Positions 131 to 10,826 of a stretch of 64,000 nucleotides of DNA are shown in pieces. Every line of letters begins with the position of its first letter. Position 1 is the stretch's first letter. Position numbers and translations under genes: made by a program. The notes under the pieces are model-generated. The model had not been told where the DNA came from. It ran no database searches and saw only the letters and a program-made list of their open reading frames with translations. Location: NCBI RefSeq assembly GCF_054482595.1, contig NZ_CM137008.1; one strand, given 5' to 3'.

Positions 131-2797
131 ATGGAACCTTTTAAATATATATGCCATTACTGGGGAAAATCCTCAAAAAGCCTGACGAAAGGAAATGATA
201 TTCATCTGTTAATTTATCATTGCCTTGATGTTGCTGCTGTTGCAGATTGCTGGTGGGATCAATCAGTCGTACTGCAAAATACTTTTTGCCGAAATGAAAT
301 GCTATCAAAACAGAGGGTGAAGGCCTGGCTGTTATTTTTCATTGCTCTTCATGATATTGGAAAGTTTGATATACGATTCCAATATAAATCAGCAGAAAGT
401 TGGCTGAAATTAAATCCTGCAACGCCATCACTTAATGGTCCATCAACACAAATGTGCCGTAAATTTAATCATGGTGCAGCCGGTCTGTATTGGTTTAACC
501 AGGATTCACTTTCAGAGCAATCTCCCGGGGATTTTTTCAGTTTTTTTGATGCCGCTCCTCATCCTTATGAGTCCTGGTTTCCATGGGTAGAGGCCGTTAC
601 AGGACATCATGGTTTTATATTACATTCCCAGGATCAAGATAAGTCGCGTTGGGAAATGCCAGCTTCTCTGGCATCTTATGCTGCGCAAGATAAACAGGCT
701 CGTGAGGAGTGGATATCTGTACTCGAAGCATTATTTTTAACGCCAGCCGGGTTATCTATAAACGATATACCACCTGATTGTTCATCACTGTTAGCAGGTT
801 TTTGCTCGCTTGCTGACTGGTTAGGTTCCTGGACCACAACGGATACCTTTCTTTTCAAAGAAGATGCACCTTCAGGAATACAAGCGCTAAGAACATATTT
901 TCAGGATAGACAGCAGGATGCGTGTCGGGTACTGGCGCTGAGTGGCCTTGTATCAAATAAGCGTCGTTATGACGGTGTACATGCCTTACTGGACAATGGC
1001 TATCAACCAAGACAATTACAGGTGTTGGTCGATGCTCTTCCTACAGCTCCCGGGCTGACGGTGATTGAGGCACCTACGGGATCAGGTAAAACCGAAACAG
1101 CGCTGGCCTATGCCTGGAAACTTATTGACCAACAACTTGCGGAGAGTGTTATTTTTGCCCTCCCTACACAAGCTACTGCAAATACAATGCTCAGCAGAAT
1201 GGAAGCGAACGCGAGCCGTTTATTTACCTCCCCAAATCTTATTCTTGCTCATGGTAATTCACGTTTTAACCACCTTTTTCAATCAATAAAATCACGCGCA
1301 TTTACTGAGCAGGGGCAAGAAGAAGCGTGGGTTCAGTGTTGTCAGTGGTTGTCACAAAGCAATAAGAAAGTGTTTCTTGGGCAAATCGGCGTTTGCACTA
1401 TTGATCAGGTGTTGATATCGGTATTGCCAGTTAAACACCGCTTTATCCGTGGTTTGGGAATTGGTCGAAGTGTTTTAATTGTTGATGAAGTTCATGCTTA
1501 CGACACCTATATGAACGGCTTGCTGGAGGCAGTGCTCAAGGCTCAGGCTGATGTGGGAGGGAGTGTTATTCTTCTTTCCGCAACCCTACCAATGAAACAA
1601 AAACAGAAACTTCTGGATACTTATGGTCTGCATACAGATCCAGTGGAAAATAACTCCGCATATCCACTTATTAACTGGCGAGGTGTGAATGGTGCGCAAC
1701 GTTTTGATCTGCCAGCTCATCCAGAACAACTCCCGCCCCGCTTTTCGATTCAGCCAGAACCTATTTATTTAGCTGACATGTTACCTGACCTTACGATGTT
1801 AGAGCGAATGATCGCAGCGGCAAACGCGGGTGCACAAGTCTGCCTCATTTGCAATTTGGTTGACGTTGCACAACTATGCTTCCAACGGCTAAAGGAACTA
1901 AATGACACGCAAGTAGATATAGATTTGTTTCATGCGCGCTTTACGCTGAACGATCGTCGTGAAAAAGAGAATCGTGTCATTAGCAATTTCGGAAAAAATG
2001 GGGAGCGAAATGTTGGACGAATACTTGTCGCCACCCAGGTCGTGGAACAATCACTCGATGTAGATTTTGATTGGTTAATTACCCAGCATTGTCCCGCTGA
2101 TTTGCTTTTCCAACGATTAGGCCGTTTACATCGCCATCATCGTAAATATCGTCCCGCCGGTTTTGAGATTCCTCTGGCAACCGTTTTGCTGCCTGATGGC
2201 GAAGGTTACGGACGACATGAGCATATTTATAGCAACGTTAGAGTCATGTGGCGGACGCAGCAACATATTGAGGAACTTAATGGAGCATCCTTATTTTTCC
2301 CTGATGCCTACCGGCAATGGCTGGATAGCATTTACGATGATGCTGAAATGGATGAGCCAGAATGGGTCATCAAAGGCATGGATAAGTTTGAAAGCGCTGA
2401 GTGTGAAAAGAGGTTCAAGGCTCGCAAGGTTCTGCAGTGGGCTGAAGAATATAGTTTGCAGGATAACGATGAAACCATTCTTGCGGTAACGAGGGATGGG
2501 GAAATGAGCCTGCCATTATTGCCTTATGTACAAACGTCTTCAGGTAAACAACTGCTCGATGGCCAGGTCTACGAGGACCTAAGTCATGAACAGCAGTATG
2601 AGGCTTTAGCACTTAATCGCGTCAATGTGCCATTTACCTGGAAACGTAGTTTTTCTGAAGTAGTCGATGAAGATGGGTTACTTTGGCTGGAAGGAAGGCA
2701 GAATCAGGATGGATGGATCTGGCAGGGTAACAGTATTGTTATTACCTACACTCGGGATGAAGGGATGACCAGAGTCATCCCTGCAAATCCCAAATAA
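131..2797 (+). CDS. cas3: Cas3 HD-nuclease/helicase, type I-E (888 aa)
   Basis: ORF translation matches remembered E. coli Cas3/YgcB at full length; followed by casABCDE-cas1-cas2 and CRISPR array. Confidence 0.95.
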   Translation: MEPFKYICHYWGKSSKSLTKGNDIHLLIYHCLDVAAVADCWWDQSVVLQNTFCRNEMLSKQRVKAWLLFFIALHDIGKFDIRFQYKSAESWLKLNPATPSLNGPSTQMCRKFNHGAAGLYWFNQDSLSEQSPGDFFSFFDAAPHPYESWFPWVEAVTGHHGFILHSQDQDKSRWEMPASLASYAAQDKQAREEWISVLEALFLTPAGLSINDIPPDCSSLLAGFCSLADWLGSWTTTDTFLFKEDAPSGIQALRTYFQDRQQDACRVLALSGLVSNKRRYDGVHALLDNGYQPRQLQVLVDALPTAPGLTVIEAPTGSGKTETALAYAWKLIDQQLAESVIFALPTQATANTMLSRMEANASRLFTSPNLILAHGNSRFNHLFQSIKSRAFTEQGQEEAWVQCCQWLSQSNKKVFLGQIGVCTIDQVLISVLPVKHRFIRGLGIGRSVLIVDEVHAYDTYMNGLLEAVLKAQADVGGSVILLSATLPMKQKQKLLDTYGLHTDPVENNSAYPLINWRGVNGAQRFDLPAHPEQLPPRFSIQPEPIYLADMLPDLTMLERMIAAANAGAQVCLICNLVDVAQLCFQRLKELNDTQVDIDLFHARFTLNDRREKENRVISNFGKNGERNVGRILVATQVVEQSLDVDFDWLITQHCPADLLFQRLGRLHRHHRKYRPAGFEIPLATVLLPDGEGYGRHEHIYSNVRVMWRTQQHIEELNGASLFFPDAYRQWLDSIYDDAEMDEPEWVIKGMDKFESAECEKRFKARKVLQWAEEYSLQDNDETILAVTRDGEMSLPLLPYVQTSSGKQLLDGQVYEDLSHEQQYEALALNRVNVPFTWKRSFSEVVDEDGLLWLEGRQNQDGWIWQGNSIVITYTRDEGMTRVIPANPK

Positions 2798-3211
2798 CTT
2801 CGGGAATGATTGGTATCAATGACGATAACAAGACCAATAACGGTTTATCCCTACTTAAGTAGGGAAGGTGCACAATGTACATCTTCTTTTAATTTCCCGG
2901 TATGAGATTTTATATTCGCAGTATGAATATTTTATGTAATAAAATTTATGGTAATTATTATAACTAAAAGTTTCTTTGATAATAAAACGAATAACTTGCA
3001 GATTTGAAATGCATGCATTATTGTCTTTAAACAATTCAACACATCTTAATATATGTATAGGTTAATTGTATTAAACCAATGAATATATTTTTGCAGTGAA
3101 TGTGATTATTGAATTAATTACGCCGTATTTTTTCTTTGTTTTTACCGATAACGGAAGTGTGCCGACGTATAGAAATGCAGGAGAAATGTCGGAGCATATG
3201 AAGGAGAACAA
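2798..3211. promoter_or_regulatory. AT-rich cas3-casA intergenic region; expected location of the cas operon promoter (H-NS/LeuO controlled in K-12); contains a 16-bp perfect palindrome at 2849-2864
   Basis: Position and AT-richness seen in sequence; promoter assignment by analogy to K-12, no motif mapped precisely. Confidence 0.45.
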
Positions 3212-4720
3212 ATGAATTTGCTTATTGATAACTGGATCCCTGTACGCCCGCGAAACGGGGGGAAAGTCCAAATCATAAATCTGCAATCGCTATACTGCAG
3301 TAGAGATCAGTGGCGATTAAGTTTGCCCCGTGACGATATGGAACTGGCCGCTTTAGCACTGCTGGTTTGCATTGGGCAAATTATCGACCCGGCAAAAGAT
3401 GACGTTGAATTTCGACATCGCATAATGAATCCGTTCACTGAAGATGGGTTTCAACAACTCATCGCGCCGTGGATAGATATGTTCTACCTTAATCACGCAG
3501 AACATCCCTTTATGCAGACCAAAGGTGTCAAAGCAAATGATGTGACTCCAATGGAAAAACTGTTGGCAGGGGTAAGCGGCGCGACGAATTGTGCTTTTGT
3601 CAATCAACCGGGTCAGGGTGAAGCATTATGTGGTGGATGCACTGCGATTGCGTTATTCAACCAGGCGAATCAGGCACCTGGTTTTGGTGGTGGCTTTAAA
3701 AGTGGTTTACGTGGAGGAACACCTATAACCACCTTCGTACGTGGGATCGATCTTCGCTCGACGGTGTTACTCAATGTCCTCACAATACCTCGTCTTCAAA
3801 AACAATTTCCCAATGAATCACATACGGAAAACCAACCTACCTGGGTTAAGCCTGTCAAACCCAATGAATCTGTGCCAGCTTCGTCAATTGGCTTTGTCCG
3901 CGGCTTATTCTGGCAACCAGCGCATATTGAATTATGCGACCCCATTGGGATTGGAAAATGTTCTTGCTGTGGGCAGGAAAGCAATTTGCGTTATACCGGT
4001 TTTCTTAAGGAAAAATTTACCTTTACAGTTAATGGGCTATGGCCCCATCCGCATTCCCCTTGTCTGGTAACAGTCAAGAAAGGGGAGGTTGAGGAAAAAT
4101 TTCTTGCTTTCACCACCTCCGCACCATCATGGACACAAATCAGCCGAGTTGTGGTAGATAAGATTATTCAAAATGAAAATGGAAATCGCGTGGCGGCGGT
4201 TGTGAATCAATTCAGAAATATTGCGCCGCAAAGTCCTCTTGAATTGATTATGGGGGGATATCGTAATAATCAAGCATCTATTCTTGAACGGCGTCATGAT
4301 GTGTTGATGTTTAATCAGGGGTGGCAACAATACGGCAATGTGATAAACGAAATAGTGACTGTTGGTTTGGGATATAAAACAGCCTTACGCAAGGCGTTAT
4401 ATACCTTTGCAGAAGGGTTTAAAAATAAAGACTTCAAAGGGGCCGGAGTTTCTGTTCATGAGACTGCAGAAAGGCATTTCTATCGACAGAGTGAATTATT
4501 AATTCCCGATGTACTGGCGAATATTAATTTTTCCCAGGCTGATGAGGTAATAGCTGATTTACGAGACAAACTTCATCAATTGTGTGAAATGCTATTTAAT
4601 CAATCTGTAGCTCCCTATGCACATCATCCTAAATTAATAAACACATTAGCGCTTGCCCGCGCCACGCTATACAAACATTTACGGGAGTTAAAACCGCAAG
4701 GAGGGCCATCAAATGGCTGA
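3212..4720 (+). CDS. casA: Cascade large subunit CasA/Cse1 (502 aa)
   Basis: ORF length and N-terminus MNLLIDNWIPVRPRNGGKVQIINL match E. coli CasA. Confidence 0.95.
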   Translation: MNLLIDNWIPVRPRNGGKVQIINLQSLYCSRDQWRLSLPRDDMELAALALLVCIGQIIDPAKDDVEFRHRIMNPFTEDGFQQLIAPWIDMFYLNHAEHPFMQTKGVKANDVTPMEKLLAGVSGATNCAFVNQPGQGEALCGGCTAIALFNQANQAPGFGGGFKSGLRGGTPITTFVRGIDLRSTVLLNVLTIPRLQKQFPNESHTENQPTWVKPVKPNESVPASSIGFVRGLFWQPAHIELCDPIGIGKCSCCGQESNLRYTGFLKEKFTFTVNGLWPHPHSPCLVTVKKGEVEEKFLAFTTSAPSWTQISRVVVDKIIQNENGNRVAAVVNQFRNIAPQSPLELIMGGYRNNQASILERRHDVLMFNQGWQQYGNVINEIVTVGLGYKTALRKALYTFAEGFKNKDFKGAGVSVHETAERHFYRQSELLIPDVLANINFSQADEVIADLRDKLHQLCEMLFNQSVAPYAHHPKLINTLALARATLYKHLRELKPQGGPSNG

Positions 4721-5195
4721 TGAAATTGATGCAATGGCTTTATATCGAGCCTGGCAACAACTGGATAATGGAGCATGTGCGCAAATTAGACGTGTTTCAG
4801 AACCTGATGAATTACGCGATATCCCTGCGTTTTATAGGCTGGTGCAACCTTTTGGTTGGGAAAACCCACGTCACCAGCAGGCTCTTTTGCGCATGGTGTT
4901 TTGCCTGAGCGCAGGAAAGAATGTCATCCGACATCAGGACAAAAAACCGGAGCAAACAACAGGTATCTCGTTGGGAAGAGCTTTAGCCAATAGTGGAAGA
5001 ATTAACGAGCGCCGTATCTTTCAATTAATTCGGGCTGACAGAACAGCCGATATGGTCCAGTTACGTCGATTACTTACTCACGCCGAACCCGTACTTGACT
5101 GGCCATTAATGGCCAGGATGTTGACCTGGTGGGGAAAGCGCGAACGCCAGCAACTTCTGGAAGATTTTGTATTGACCACAAACAAAAATGCGTAA
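4713..5195 (+). CDS. casB: Cascade small subunit CasB/Cse2 (160 aa)
   Basis: 160-aa ORF overlapping casA stop, operon position. Confidence 0.93.
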   Translation: MADEIDAMALYRAWQQLDNGACAQIRRVSEPDELRDIPAFYRLVQPFGWENPRHQQALLRMVFCLSAGKNVIRHQDKKPEQTTGISLGRALANSGRINERRIFQLIRADRTADMVQLRRLLTHAEPVLDWPLMARMLTWWGKRERQQLLEDFVLTTNKNA

Positions 5196-5207
5196 GGAAA
5201 CCTTTCT

Positions 5208-6299
5208 ATGTCTAACTTTATCAATATTCATGTTCTGATCTCTCACAGCCCTTCATGTCTGAACCGCGACGATATGAACATGCAGAAAGACGCTATTTTC
5301 GGCGGGAAAAGACGAGTAAGAATTTCAAGTCAAAGCCTTAAACGTGCGATGCGTAAAAGTGATTATTACGCACAAAATATTGGTGAATCCAGTCTCAGAA
5401 CAATTCATCTTGCACAATTACGTGATGTTCTTCGGCAAAAACTTGGTGAACGTTTTGACCAAAAAATCATCGATAAGACATTAGCGCTGCTCTCCGGTAA
5501 ATCAGTTGATGAAGCCGAAAAGATTTCTGCCGATGCGGTTACTCCCTGGGTTGTGGGAGAAATAGCCTGGTTCTGTGAGCAGGTTGCAAAAGCAGAGGCT
5601 GATAATCTGGATGATAAAAAGCTGCTCAAAGTTCTTAAGGAAGATATTGCCGCCATACGTGTGGATTTACAGCAGGGTGTTGATATTGCGCTTAGTGGAA
5701 GAATGGCAACCAGCGGCATGATGAGTGAGTTGGGAAAAGTTGATGGTGCAATGTCCATTGCGCATGCGATCACTACTCATCAGGTTGATTCTGATATTGA
5801 CTGGTTCACCGCTGTAGATGATTTACAGGAACAAGGTTCTGCACATCTGGGAACTCAGGAATTTTCATCGGGTGTTTTTTATCGTTATGCCAACATTAAC
5901 CTCGCTCAACTTCAGGAAAATTTAGGTGGTGCCTCCAGGGAGCAGGCTCTGGAAATTGCAACCCATGTTGTTCATATGCTGGCAACAGAGGTCCCTGGAG
6001 CAAAACAGCGTACTTATGCCGCTTTTAACCCTGCGGATATGGTAATGGTTAATTTCTCCGATATGCCACTTTCTATGGCAAATGCTTTTGAAAAAGCGGT
6101 TAAAGCGAAAGATGGCTTTTTGCAACCGTCTATACAGGCGTTTAATCAATATTGGGATCGCGTTGCCAATGGATATGGTCTGAACGGAGCTGCTGCGCAA
6201 TTCAGCTTATCTGATGTAGACCCAATTACTGCTCAAGTTAAACAAATGCCTACTTTAGAACAGTTAAAATCCTGGGTTCGTAATAATGGCGAGGCGTGA
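5208..6299 (+). CDS. casC: Cascade backbone subunit CasC/Cas7 (363 aa)
   Basis: 363-aa ORF, operon position. Confidence 0.95.
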
Positions 6300-6301
6300 A
6301 C

Positions 6302-6976
6302 ATGAGATCTTATTTGATCTTGCGGCTTGCTGGGCCAATGCAAGCCTGGGGGCAGCCGACCTTTGAAGGAACGCGACCTACCGGAAGATTTCCGACCCGA
6401 AGCGGGTTATTAGGGCTACTCGGGGCTTGTCTTGGGATCCAACGTGATGATACTTCTTCATTACAGGCGTTATCAGAGAGTGTGCAATTTGCAGTGCGCT
6501 GCGATGAACTCATTCTTGACGATCGTCGTGTGTCTGTAACGGGGTTGCGTGATTACCATACAGTCCTTGGAGCGCGAGAAGATTACCGTGGTTTGAAAAG
6601 TCATGAAACGATTCAAACATGGCGCGAATATTTATGTGATGCCTCCTTTACCGTCGCTCTCTGGTTAACACCCCATGCAACGATGGTTATCTCAGAACTT
6701 GAAAAAGCAGTATTAAAGCCTCGGTATACACCCTACCTGGGGCGGAGAAGTTGCCCACTAACACACCCGCTTTTTTTGGGGACATGTCAGGCATCGGATC
6801 CTCAGAAGGCGCTATTAAATTATGAGCCCGTTGGCGGCGATATATATAGTGAGGAATCAGTTACAGGGCATCATTTAAAATTTACGGCGCGCGACGAACC
6901 GATGATCACCTTACCTCGACAATTTGCTTCCCGAGAATGGTATGTGATTAAAGGAGGTATGGATGTATCTCAGTAA
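6302..6976 (+). CDS. casD: Cascade subunit CasD/Cas5 (224 aa from ATG at 6302)
   Basis: ORF 6296-6976; N-terminus MRSYLILRLAGPMQAWGQPTFEG from the ATG at 6302 matches CasD. Confidence 0.93.
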   Translation: MRSYLILRLAGPMQAWGQPTFEGTRPTGRFPTRSGLLGLLGACLGIQRDDTSSLQALSESVQFAVRCDELILDDRRVSVTGLRDYHTVLGAREDYRGLKSHETIQTWREYLCDASFTVALWLTPHATMVISELEKAVLKPRYTPYLGRRSCPLTHPLFLGTCQASDPQKALLNYEPVGGDIYSEESVTGHHLKFTARDEPMITLPRQFASREWYVIKGGMDVSQ

Positions 6977-7562
6977 AGTCATCATTGCCAGGGCCTGGAG
7001 CAGGGATCTTTACCAACTTCACCAGGGATTATGGCATTTATTTCCAAACAGACCGGATGCTGCTCGTGATTTTCTTTTTCATGTTGAGAAGCGAAACACA
7101 CCAGAAGGCTGTCATGTTTTATTGCAGTCAGCGCAAATGCCTGTTTCAACTGCCGTTGCGACAGTCATTAAAACTAAACAGGTTGAATTTCAACTTCAGG
7201 TTGGTGTTCCACTCTATTTTCGGCTTCGGGCAAATCCGATCAAAACTATTCTCGACAATCAAAAGCGCCTGGACAGTAAAGGGAATATTAAACGCTGTCG
7301 GGTTCCGTTAATAAAAGAAGCAGAACAAATCGCGTGGTTGCAACGTAAATTGGGCAATGCGGCGCGCGTTGAAGATGTGCATCCCATATCGGAACGGCCA
7401 CAGTATTTTTCTGGTGATGGTAAAAGTGGAAAGATCCAAACGGTTTGCTTTGAAGGTGTGCTCACCATCAACGACGCGCCAGCGTTAATAGATCTTGTAC
7501 AGCAAGGTATTGGGCCAGCTAAATCGATGGGATGTGGCTTGCTATCTTTGGCTCCACTGTGA
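6963..7562 (+). CDS. casE: CRISPR repeat endoribonuclease CasE/Cas6e (199 aa)
   Basis: 199-aa ORF, operon position. Confidence 0.95.
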   Translation: MYLSKVIIARAWSRDLYQLHQGLWHLFPNRPDAARDFLFHVEKRNTPEGCHVLLQSAQMPVSTAVATVIKTKQVEFQLQVGVPLYFRLRANPIKTILDNQKRLDSKGNIKRCRVPLIKEAEQIAWLQRKLGNAARVEDVHPISERPQYFSGDGKSGKIQTVCFEGVLTINDAPALIDLVQQGIGPAKSMGCGLLSLAPL

Positions 7563-7577
7563 TTGAGGTGTAATAAA

Positions 7578-8780
<1,203 letters not shown>

Positions 8781-8885
8781 AAACAAAGAATTAGCTGATC
8801 TTTAATAATAAGGAAATGTTACATTAAGGTTGGTGGGTTGTTTTTATGGGAAAAAATGCTTTCAGAACAAATGTATACTTTTAGA
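8781..8885 (+). promoter_or_regulatory. CRISPR leader, AT-rich, between cas2 and the first repeat
   Basis: AT-rich ~105 bp directly upstream of repeat 1; canonical repeats are leader-proximal. Confidence 0.7.
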
Positions 8886-9768
8886 GAGTTCCCCGCGCCA
8901 GCGGGGATAAACCGCATTTAATGCAAAACTAATTGCACAATAAATAGAGTTCCCCGCGCCAGCGGGGATAAACCGGCGATAAACCTCCTCATCGCTGATA
9001 TCAATAAGAGTTCCCCGCGCCAGCGGGGATAAACCGATAAAGGCTCGGCGGCGCAAAAAATGGCACGGGAGTTCCCCGCGCCAGCGGGGATAAACCGCTC
9101 TCGTTGTTGTGCCTCAGTACCGGTGCGCGGAGTTCCCCGCGCCAGCGGGGATAAACCGCACACCGGTGCGACGGGAAACGTTCAGCGGCCGAGTTCCCCG
9201 CGCCAGCGGGGATAAACCGGGAATAGTTAATTTCGGTGATGGCTGCGTAAAGAGTTCCCCGCGGCAGCGGGGATAAACCGAGTAATGCTGCGTTGAGATG
9301 ACCAGGCGGGCTGAGTTCCCCGCGGCAGCGGGGATAAACCGTTGACGCCAGCGGCGACCCGCGCCACGGGCTTGAGTTCCCCGCGCCAGCGGGGATAAAC
9401 CGTAGCCAGACGTACTCGCAATCTGTCGGCGGTCGAGTTCCCCGCGCCAGCGGGGATAAACCACCAGTTCTCCGTATTCTGTGGTTATCGTTGCTGAGTT
9501 CCCCGCGCCAGCGGGGATAAACCGGGAGTTCAGACATAGGTGGAATGATGGACTACGAGTTCCCCGCGTTAGCGGGGATAAACCGCCCGGTAGCCAGGTT
9601 TGCAACGCCTGAACCGAGAGTTCCCCGCGCCAGCAGGGATAAACCGGCAACGACGGTGAGATTTCACGCCTGACGCTGGTGTTCCCCGCGCCAGCGGGGA
9701 TAAACCGGGCGCACTGGATGCGATGATGGATATCACTGAGAATTCCCCGCCCCTGCGGTAGAACACCC
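8886..9768 (+). CRISPR. Type I-E CRISPR array: 15 repeats of 29 bp (GAGTTCCCCGCGCCAGCGGGGATAAACCG) and 14 spacers of 31-33 bp, period ~61 bp; terminal repeat at 9740-9768 is degenerate
   Basis: Repeat starts at 8886, 8947, 9007, 9069, 9130, 9191, 9252, 9313, 9374, 9435, 9496, 9557, 9618, 9679, 9740; variants in repeats 7, 8, 10, 12, 13, 14. Confidence 0.97.
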
Positions 9769-9788
9769 AGCTCCCATTTTCCAACCCA

Positions 9789-10826
9789 TCAAGACGCCTT
9801 CGCCAGCTCCTTCACCAACGGTAGCATTATCCGCATAACATCACGGCAGCGACGTTCTATTCTTCCAGGAAGTGCCTTATCAATATGTTGTTGATTATCC
9901 AGTCTTACGTCATGCCAGCTATTTCCCGCCGGGAAGGCAGGTGTTTTTGCGCGTTGCTGATAACCATCCTTATTCCCAAGATTCCAGTTAGTCGCTTCCA
10001 CCGAAAGTACAGCAATGCCCGCTTTGTCGAATATTTCTGCGTCATTACAACACCCAGTGCCTTTCGGATAATTTTTATTCAAACCCGGATTGGTCGTTGC
10101 GGCAATTCCATGACTACGCGCAATTGCCAGCGCCCTGTCGCGCGTTAATTTCCTTACTGCTTCAGGGGTTTTTACACCGCTGTTGAAATACAATTTATCG
10201 CCAACAATTAAGTTATCGAGATTAATCACCAGCAGCGTATTTTTCTTTTCGGTGTCACTCATCCGCTTGAGTAAATTCTCAGCGCCTAATTTCCCTTCCT
10301 CTTCGCCGCTGGTCGCCACAAATCGAATACCATACTCGGTAGGCGTATTTTTCAGGCGTTCTGCCAATTCCAGCATGACACCTAAACCTGCGGCGTTATC
10401 ATCCATTCCTTGTAACGTCAGCCCGCCGAGATTGGCATCGGCGTCAGCATCGCTCAGCGGGGCGTAAGTATCCAGATGCGCCATAATGATGATCTGCTGC
10501 GGGGCTTTGCCTTCATGAGCGGCAATCACCGTACTTCCCGTCACGTTATGCCAGCTCTTACGATTATCGCGGGCGGTATAAATATACCGACTATTAAATG
10601 TCCGAATATCACTGCGATAACCCATTTGCTGAAACTGTTGGCGAATATAATCGGCAGATAACATTTCTGCAGGAGTTCCGGTCATGCGTCCCGGAAAGAA
10701 AGTAGCAATATGTCGTGCCTGAGTATTAGCAAAATCGCCAGGTTTAGGTGACGAGGCGTGTACGGGGAGAATAAAGCATACGCCGAGCGCCAAGGCAGCG
10801 GTACGGTGGCGCAATGCGGAAAACAT
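9789..10826 (-). CDS. iap: Alkaline phosphatase isozyme conversion aminopeptidase (345 aa)
   Basis: 345-aa ORF with signal-peptide-like N-terminus MFSALRHRTAALALGVCFILPVHA; adjacent to CRISPR trailer as in E. coli. Confidence 0.9.
   Translation of the reverse strand: MFSALRHRTAALALGVCFILPVHASSPKPGDFANTQARHIATFFPGRMTGTPAEMLSADYIRQQFQQMGYRSDIRTFNSRYIYTARDNRKSWHNVTGSTVIAAHEGKAPQQIIIMAHLDTYAPLSDADADANLGGLTLQGMDDNAAGLGVMLELAERLKNTPTEYGIRFVATSGEEEGKLGAENLLKRMSDTEKKNTLLVINLDNLIVGDKLYFNSGVKTPEAVRKLTRDRALAIARSHGIAATTNPGLNKNYPKGTGCCNDAEIFDKAGIAVLSVEATNWNLGNKDGYQQRAKTPAFPAGNSWHDVRLDNQQHIDKALPGRIERRCRDVMRIMLPLVKELAKAS

Follow-up and report, generated by a model that had tools for sequence, protein, structure and literature searches.

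How does a CRISPR array of Escherichia coli come to carry repeat variants that crowd towards its trailer end, and why do two neighbouring repeats share one and the same base change? The question is raised by an array in a 64,000-nt stretch of DNA (NCBI RefSeq assembly GCF_054482595.1, contig NZ_CM137008.1), which we refer to as the window and whose relevant features are collected in Table 1. The answer developed here is that the locus is very probably an ordinary E. coli CRISPR-1 array of the K-12-type (E2) type I-E system, in which the repeat variants are historical markers and not a functional design.

Table 1. Features of the CRISPR-1 locus in the window (coordinates are those of the window; repeats are numbered R1 to R15 from the leader).
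Feature	Position	Strand	Remarks
Type I-E interference genes, as a block	131-7562	+	
cas3	131-2797	+	intact; ORF list, RefSeq annotation of TUM18780
casA/cse1	3212-4720	+	intact; ORF list, RefSeq annotation of TUM18780
casB/cse2	4713-5195	+	intact; ORF list, RefSeq annotation of TUM18780
cas7e	5208-6299	+	intact; ORF list, RefSeq annotation of TUM18780
cas5e	6302-6976	+	intact; ORF list, RefSeq annotation of TUM18780
cas6e/casE	6963-7562	+	intact; ORF list, RefSeq annotation of TUM18780
cas1e pseudogene	7578-8494	+	1-nt deletion between 8017 and 8018
cas2e	8496-8780	+	intact; ORF list, RefSeq annotation
Leader	8781-8885	+	105 nt, AT-rich, K-12 (E2) type; comparison with K-12
CRISPR-1 (CRISPR2.1) array	8886-9768	+	15 repeats and 14 spacers, 61-nt period
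Spacer 2	8976-9007	+	32/32 match to a prophage replicative-helicase gene, AAG PAM
R7, spacer 7, R8	9252-9341	+	R7 9252-9280, R8 9313-9341; loop change C13G in both (bases 9264, 9325)
Spacer 8	9342-9373	+	G+C-rich; 31/32 match to a prophage tail-fibre gene
R10 and spacer 10	9435-9495	+	last base of R10 is A (base 9463)
R12	9557-9585	+	loop change CC13,14TT
R13	9618-9646	+	stem change G18A (base 9635), giving a C9/A18 mismatch
R14, spacer 14, R15	9679-9768	+	R14 begins GTG (9679); R15 starts at 9740
iap	9789-10826	-	borders the array on its trailer side

Reading of the sequence and an independent repeat finder both gave repeats of 29 nt, spacers that are all 32 nt long and a strict 61-nt period. 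R1 to R6, R9 and R11 read GAGTTCCCCGCGCCAGCGGGGATAAACCG and are the eight copies identical to the consensus. Measured against that consensus (GWGTTCCCCGCGCCAGCGGGGATAAACCG), six further repeats have one or two differences, and the remaining one is the degenerate terminal repeat R15, in which 20 of 29 positions agree. An earlier note on this DNA had listed the canonical set together with the changes in R7/R8, R10 and R12 to R15, and every detail of that list agrees with the sequence and with the repeat finder. The clustering of variant repeats towards the trailer, which the same note had pointed out, is likewise seen in an exact rank-sum test (p = 0.003), with the restriction that the test treats the repeats as independent, which as events they are not. 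Tandem Repeats Finder reported no array, its units being less than 70% alike owing to the spacers, which is a limit of the tool and not counter-evidence. Searches against Rfam returned no CRISPR-DR family, either at E<=1 between 8600 and 9900 or at gathering score in the whole window, and gave chance-level matches only; a 29-nt repeat scores too little. The E. coli repeat consensus GWGTT... and polymorphisms of the repeat have been described before (PMC3338789).

The assignment to CRISPR-1, already proposed in the earlier note, is confirmed by the order cas2-leader-array-iap and by cas genes and a leader of K-12 type. Eight complete genomes are 100% identical to the window across positions 8700 to 9900, and a CRISPR is annotated there between cas2e and iap; TUM18780 differs from the window at 2 positions in the 19,400 bases compared. 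Interference has its full module, adaptation a broken one: cas3, casA to casE and cas2 are intact, and cas1 is a pseudogene. Aligned with its K-12 counterpart, cas1 shows 98.7% identity and one gap, a deletion at nt 441 of K-12 cas1, by which the frame is lost after about residue 147 and a stop follows soon after. The gene is also annotated as frameshifted in TUM18780, Santai, THO-010, XH990 and GF66.1, i.e. in all close relatives that were read.

The leader agrees with that of K-12 in 105 of 106 nt (8780-8885), the sole difference being an A>C exchange at position -23 (base 8863). This exchange was found in 17 of the 1,214 genomes with this leader type, and these are exactly the 17 that carry spacers 6, 9 and 10. 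It could be a neutral clade marker. A sigma-70 scan of positions 8600 to 9900 detected no consensus promoter; the known leader promoter is weak, and a simple scan is uninformative here. The type I-E cas operon of E. coli is normally silenced by H-NS. We also observed a 20-nt direct repeat (TTAAGGTTGGTG...) with one copy at the end of cas2 (8751-8770) and one in the leader (8824-8843), 73 nt apart and 85% identical.

The variants at the trailer end turned out to be widely shared. K-12 MG1655 has spacers 11 to 14 with the TT, G18A and GTG variants at the corresponding repeats, and the TT variant of R12 precedes the same spacer in K-12 MG1655, TUM12357 and 32F4. Of the 655 complete genomes that hold the unit spacer 12-R13(G18A)-spacer 13, 646 have it in exact form; MG1655, BW25113 and DH5-alpha derivatives are among them, as are numerous isolates of clinical or environmental origin. 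The block from R12 to R15 is covered to 80% or more in 737 genomes, and at least its end is matched in 4,055. Arrays beside the other cas variant, as in O157:H7, O104:H4 and others, have GTG in all their repeats and close with the spacer 14 and the degenerate repeat found here. CRISPR-A and CRISPR-T have been described as the two main forms of the repeat (PMC3737337), and the iap-proximal tandem of degenerate repeat and spacer is known as an anchor that is present whatever the cas variant (PMC3903273). Judged by sequence, R14 is the published CRISPR-T repeat type and R15 with spacer 14 is the published, species-wide anchor unit. K-12 has these variants at corresponding positions, and so have about 650 genomes for R12 and R13 and thousands for R14 and R15, the very pattern by which the earlier note had proposed to recognize an ancestral polymorphism without functional meaning, and its reading therefore does not stand for R12 to R15. 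On this comparison these four variants are ancestral lineage markers, not recent changes.

A different origin applies to the final base of R10. In type I-E systems the incoming spacer brings along the final repeat nucleotide, which is the last one of its PAM (PMC3338789, PMC10011333); repeats that end in CCA are found where the PAM is AAA or CGA, and the next repeat does not take over the change (PMC3338789). In every relative read the terminal A of R10 goes with spacer 10, even in THO-010, in which spacer 9 is deleted, and the remaining carriers match this stretch exactly. Repeat position 29 is variable in other arrays as well, where it is A, C or T. The final A is thus probably a PAM-derived nucleotide and not a repeat mutation, and would point to a non-AAG PAM ending in A. 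The protospacer of spacer 10 was not found among phages, plasmids, complete E. coli genomes or in IMG/VR. The arrangement is the one described by Swarts 2012 (PMC3338789), with a CCA-ending repeat before one spacer and a canonical repeat next to it on the leader side, except that the non-AAG PAM is in our case one that we infer. The earlier note was right that R10 ends in A; its classification as a point-mutated repeat is not supported, since by published type I-E behaviour this base would come from the PAM.

How the array has changed in its recent past can be read from its relatives. In 14 relatives we found five array forms, which differ only by deletions of units (spacers 2-3; spacer 9) and by duplications (spacer 4; spacers 4-5; spacers 11-13), and the junction of the last of these duplications carries the R14 marker. 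All five forms read have spacer 1 beside the leader, and no genome of the lineage contains a spacer foreign to the set. With cas1 frameshifted, the array is therefore frozen and does not grow any further; the same spacer 1, the lack of any new spacer and the frameshifted cas1 in the relatives indicate that adaptation has been dead since before the lineage diversified. As the comparison of the array forms shows for this lineage, the frozen array is altered now only by repeat-to-repeat deletions and duplications. The units of spacers 4 and 5 are the ones most often duplicated in relatives. These two spacers (9098-9129 and 9159-9190) also have the 9-mer ACCGGTGCG in common, which is about chance level over 91 spacer pairs.

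The spacers themselves are what would be expected of such an array. A perfect protospacer of spacer 2 occurs in about 418 complete E. coli genomes, including the ST131 strains EC958 and JJ1886; its context and PAM were read in EC958. The protospacer of spacer 8 is preceded by AGG, i.e. by AAG shifted by one, and spacer 12 has a 29/32 match with an AAG PAM in an IMG/VR contig. Spacers 2, 8 and 12 are genuine spacers, with targets in mobile elements next to AAG-type PAMs. E. coli spacers mainly target prophages (PMC10910852), and the targets found here agree with this. Two 9-mers within spacer 8 (CGCCAGCGG and CCCGCGCCA) are identical to parts of the repeat; an artefact derived from the repeat was considered and rejected in view of the 31/32 match to the tail-fibre gene. 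The CRISPR-2 array of VL40 independently holds a spacer that overlaps the spacer 8 site on the opposite strand, with an AAG PAM. No protospacer match was obtained for spacers 1, 3-7, 9, 10 and 13; for spacers 11 and 14 the search covered phages and plasmids only. The search of the whole array against phages and plasmids that the earlier note had recommended brought up nothing but other CRISPR arrays in misfiled records and chance matches, and the targets came from E. coli genomes (spacers 2 and 8) and IMG/VR (spacer 12).

A functional meaning of the variants would have to show in the processing of the transcript. The repeat RNA is predicted (ViennaRNA) to form a hairpin in which positions 5-11 pair with 16-22 as a 7-bp stem and positions 12-15 are a 4-nt loop, in agreement with the published 7-bp stem and tetraloop of the CasE substrate (PMC5965381) and with the earlier placing of C13G and TT in the loop and of G18A in the stem. 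Canonical, C13G, TT, G29A and A2T repeats share the same predicted fold of 7 bp and tetraloop at -15.1 kcal/mol, compared with -8.9 kcal/mol for G18A with its one C9/A18 mismatch; the predicted stem of R15 has only 4 bp. With the flanking spacers included, the G18A hairpin still forms with a probability of about 0.93. The weakest predicted hairpin in context is that of R8 (about 0.56), owing to predicted competition from spacer 8, which is G+C-rich and repeat-like. G18A is thus predicted to weaken the hairpin but not to abolish it, and may affect CasE processing. A minimum free energy fold of the full-length pre-crRNA (about 950 nt), in which distant repeats pair with each other, was discarded as not trustworthy at that length. 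Counts of crRNA clones per spacer were reportedly given by Brouns in 2008. In K-12, crRNA usage is very uneven, and the units that flank the G18A repeat are not singled out (PMC5904413). The CRISPR-2 arrays of strains 104 and D10 have runs of five and three leader-proximal repeats with the stem mismatch G10A together with C13T (local coordinates 1435-1707 and 1557-1707, respectively); stem-disrupting repeat variants can therefore spread by acquisition and persist in nature.

It is very improbable that degenerate repeats were selected here because a block of CasE processing silences certain spacers, such as self-targeting ones. The loss of 6.2 kcal/mol in predicted hairpin stability by G18A, the idea of degraded repeats beside self-targeting spacers, as cited in PMC3338789, and the uneven representation of K-12 crRNAs (PMC5904413) are in line with it. 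However, a second match to spacers 12 and 13 is practically absent from 5,426 E. coli genomes (656 places in 655 genomes), and the window holds none; changes in the loop or at the ends do not alter the predicted fold, the hairpin of G18A persists in context, and the variants are retained in lineages with a silent system or a dead cas1.

The C13G pair in R7 and R8 is the only variant of this array without a documented origin. Spacers 7 and 8 with the G13 repeats were found in 14 complete genomes only, always in the order spacer 6-G13-spacer 7-G13-spacer 8, and the pair is private to these genomes. In three isolates from Swiss farms, whose cas1 is intact, spacers 6 and 9 are neighbours with a canonical repeat in between, a junction that can be either a deletion or the ancestral state. 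Neither the 5,426 complete genomes nor the metagenome scan (exact, for spacer 8) showed spacer 7 or spacer 8 in a different context.

According to the earlier note, one mutation shared by adjacent repeats is not what duplication of the leader repeat predicts. We come to the opposite view: copying of the first repeat predicts just that, and runs of two to five neighbouring repeats with a common change are seen in other E. coli arrays. Strain 104 has five leader-proximal repeats with G10A and C13T; in strain 2 HS-C, three successive internal repeats carry A2T and two carry T4C. The change shared by R7 and R8 would accordingly be the trace to be expected when a mutated leader-proximal repeat is copied. 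The puzzle is not that neighbours share it but that R1 to R6, on the leader side of the pair, are canonical. Recombination between repeats, within or between lineages, is the likeliest, if unproven, way by which R1 to R6 returned to the canonical form, and is favoured because such events are plainly frequent in this array. The alternative named in the earlier note, unit duplication or recombination, therefore holds in part: spacers 7 and 8 are unrelated, which excludes unit duplication as the source of the pair, and recombination between repeats does reshape the array in relatives. The 5,426 complete genomes and the metagenome scan contained neither the proposed intermediate array nor a donor array for the G13 pair, and IMG/VR scans for spacers 7, 10 and 13 gave nothing that separates the possible origins.

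Three other origins of the pair were weighed against copying at the leader. It is unlikely that a single mutation was spread when a repeat-spacer unit was duplicated or when the neighbouring repeat underwent gene conversion: the unit duplications of spacer 4, spacers 4-5 and spacers 11-13 prove that such events exist in relatives, but every duplication observed copies the spacer too, so that the unrelated spacers 7 and 8 would need a later replacement of spacers, and conversion without crossover between 29-bp repeats 61 nt apart finds no support in the sampled arrays. Two independent C13G mutations in neighbouring repeats, with loop position 13 as a mutational hotspot, are hardly to be expected. 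Position 13 is indeed the most variable internal position among 122 distinct units, and 104 genomes have C13G, with five or more different spacer contexts among those read, one of them in the CRISPR-2 array of TUM18780 (same strain); the change would also render the centre of the palindrome more symmetric, as a template-switch mutation would. Against this, a C13G frequency of a few per thousand units makes two adjacent independent hits very unlikely, G13 occurs singly elsewhere, and the pair is uniform in 14 of 14 carriers. The C13G repeat of the TUM18780 CRISPR-2 array lies outside the window (local coordinate 11858) and is the only one in that array.

Quite improbable, too, is an internal (ectopic) integration, in which spacer 7 was inserted at an internal G13 repeat and duplicated that repeat, the exchange at -23 having loosened leader-proximal targeting. 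The exchange lies in the published IHF-site interval of the leader (-9 to -35; PMC10011333) and is the only sign of a possibly relaxed integration polarity in this clade. The neighbourhood of spacers 6 and 9 in the sister lineage, with a canonical repeat between them, and the restriction of -23C to the 17 genomes with spacers 6, 9 and 10 are compatible with such an event. Furthermore, Cas1-Cas2 integrates at all repeats in vitro when IHF is lacking (PMC10011333), and ectopic integration is documented in other systems: in S. pyogenes leader mutants and in S. thermophilus CRISPR3 a new internal spacer lies between two copies of an internal repeat, like the G13 pair (PMC8047081). These precedents are type II systems, in contrast to the type I-E system studied here, for which no such event is documented. 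Ectopic integration would also demand two successive internal insertions at one spot (spacer 8, then spacer 7) with the mutation in between, it presupposes a putative effect of -23C on IHF binding, and an intermediate array is missing from the 5,426 complete genomes and the metagenome scan. Moreover, spacers 1 to 5, and spacer x23 of the sister lineage, are leader-proximal as normal.

Copying of a mutated leader-proximal repeat, followed by recombination, would thus complete the following history of the array. R15 and spacer 14 are the ancient anchor unit and R14 is the 'T' form typical of the other E. coli cas variant. R12 and R13 represent old point mutations in internal repeats, inherited unchanged by the lineages that kept these spacers, K-12 included, and the last base of R10 probably arrived together with spacer 10, the PAM of its protospacer having ended in A. 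A leader-proximal repeat most likely mutated to C13G and was copied once at the next acquisition; afterwards recombination between repeats may have made the leader-proximal part canonical again or may have moved the block of spacers 7 and 8. If the operon is expressed, the array would be transcribed from the leader, and CasE would cut each repeat at the 3' base of the hairpin, yielding 61-nt crRNAs that guide Cascade and Cas3.

The closest known system is CRISPR-1 of K-12 MG1655 (CRISPR2.1 / CRISPR-I), with the same cas2-leader-array-iap locus, the same repeat and a leader identical at 105 of 106 positions. Also alike are trailer spacers 11 to 14, the repeats with TT, G18A and GTG, and the presence of a degenerate repeat at the end. 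In contrast, the ten leader-proximal spacers differ, the K-12 repeat before spacer 14 has two extra changes, and K-12 has an intact cas1 and lacks the A>C exchange at -23. R14 and the tandem of spacer 14 and R15 are like the CRISPR-T variant and the anchor described previously (Diez-Villasenor 2013, PMC3737337; Almendros 2014, PMC3903273) and differ from them in nothing material; compared with the published anchor, spacer 14 and R15 show single-base differences between lineages. Each class of variant found here has already been described for E. coli CRISPR arrays, and the array is already known in kind.

For the biology of E. coli, these results have several implications. The G18A repeat with its stem mismatch is present in K-12 itself and may bear on the uneven usage of crRNAs there (PMC5904413). 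The leader with the private -23C is a natural variant relevant to IHF-guided integration; if ectopic integration, improbable as it is, were true, the C13G pair would mark a natural case of it in an E. coli type I-E array, perhaps permitted by this leader. Finally, the repeat variants mark the places of crossover, and an array with a dead cas1 is still being reshaped by deletions and duplications.
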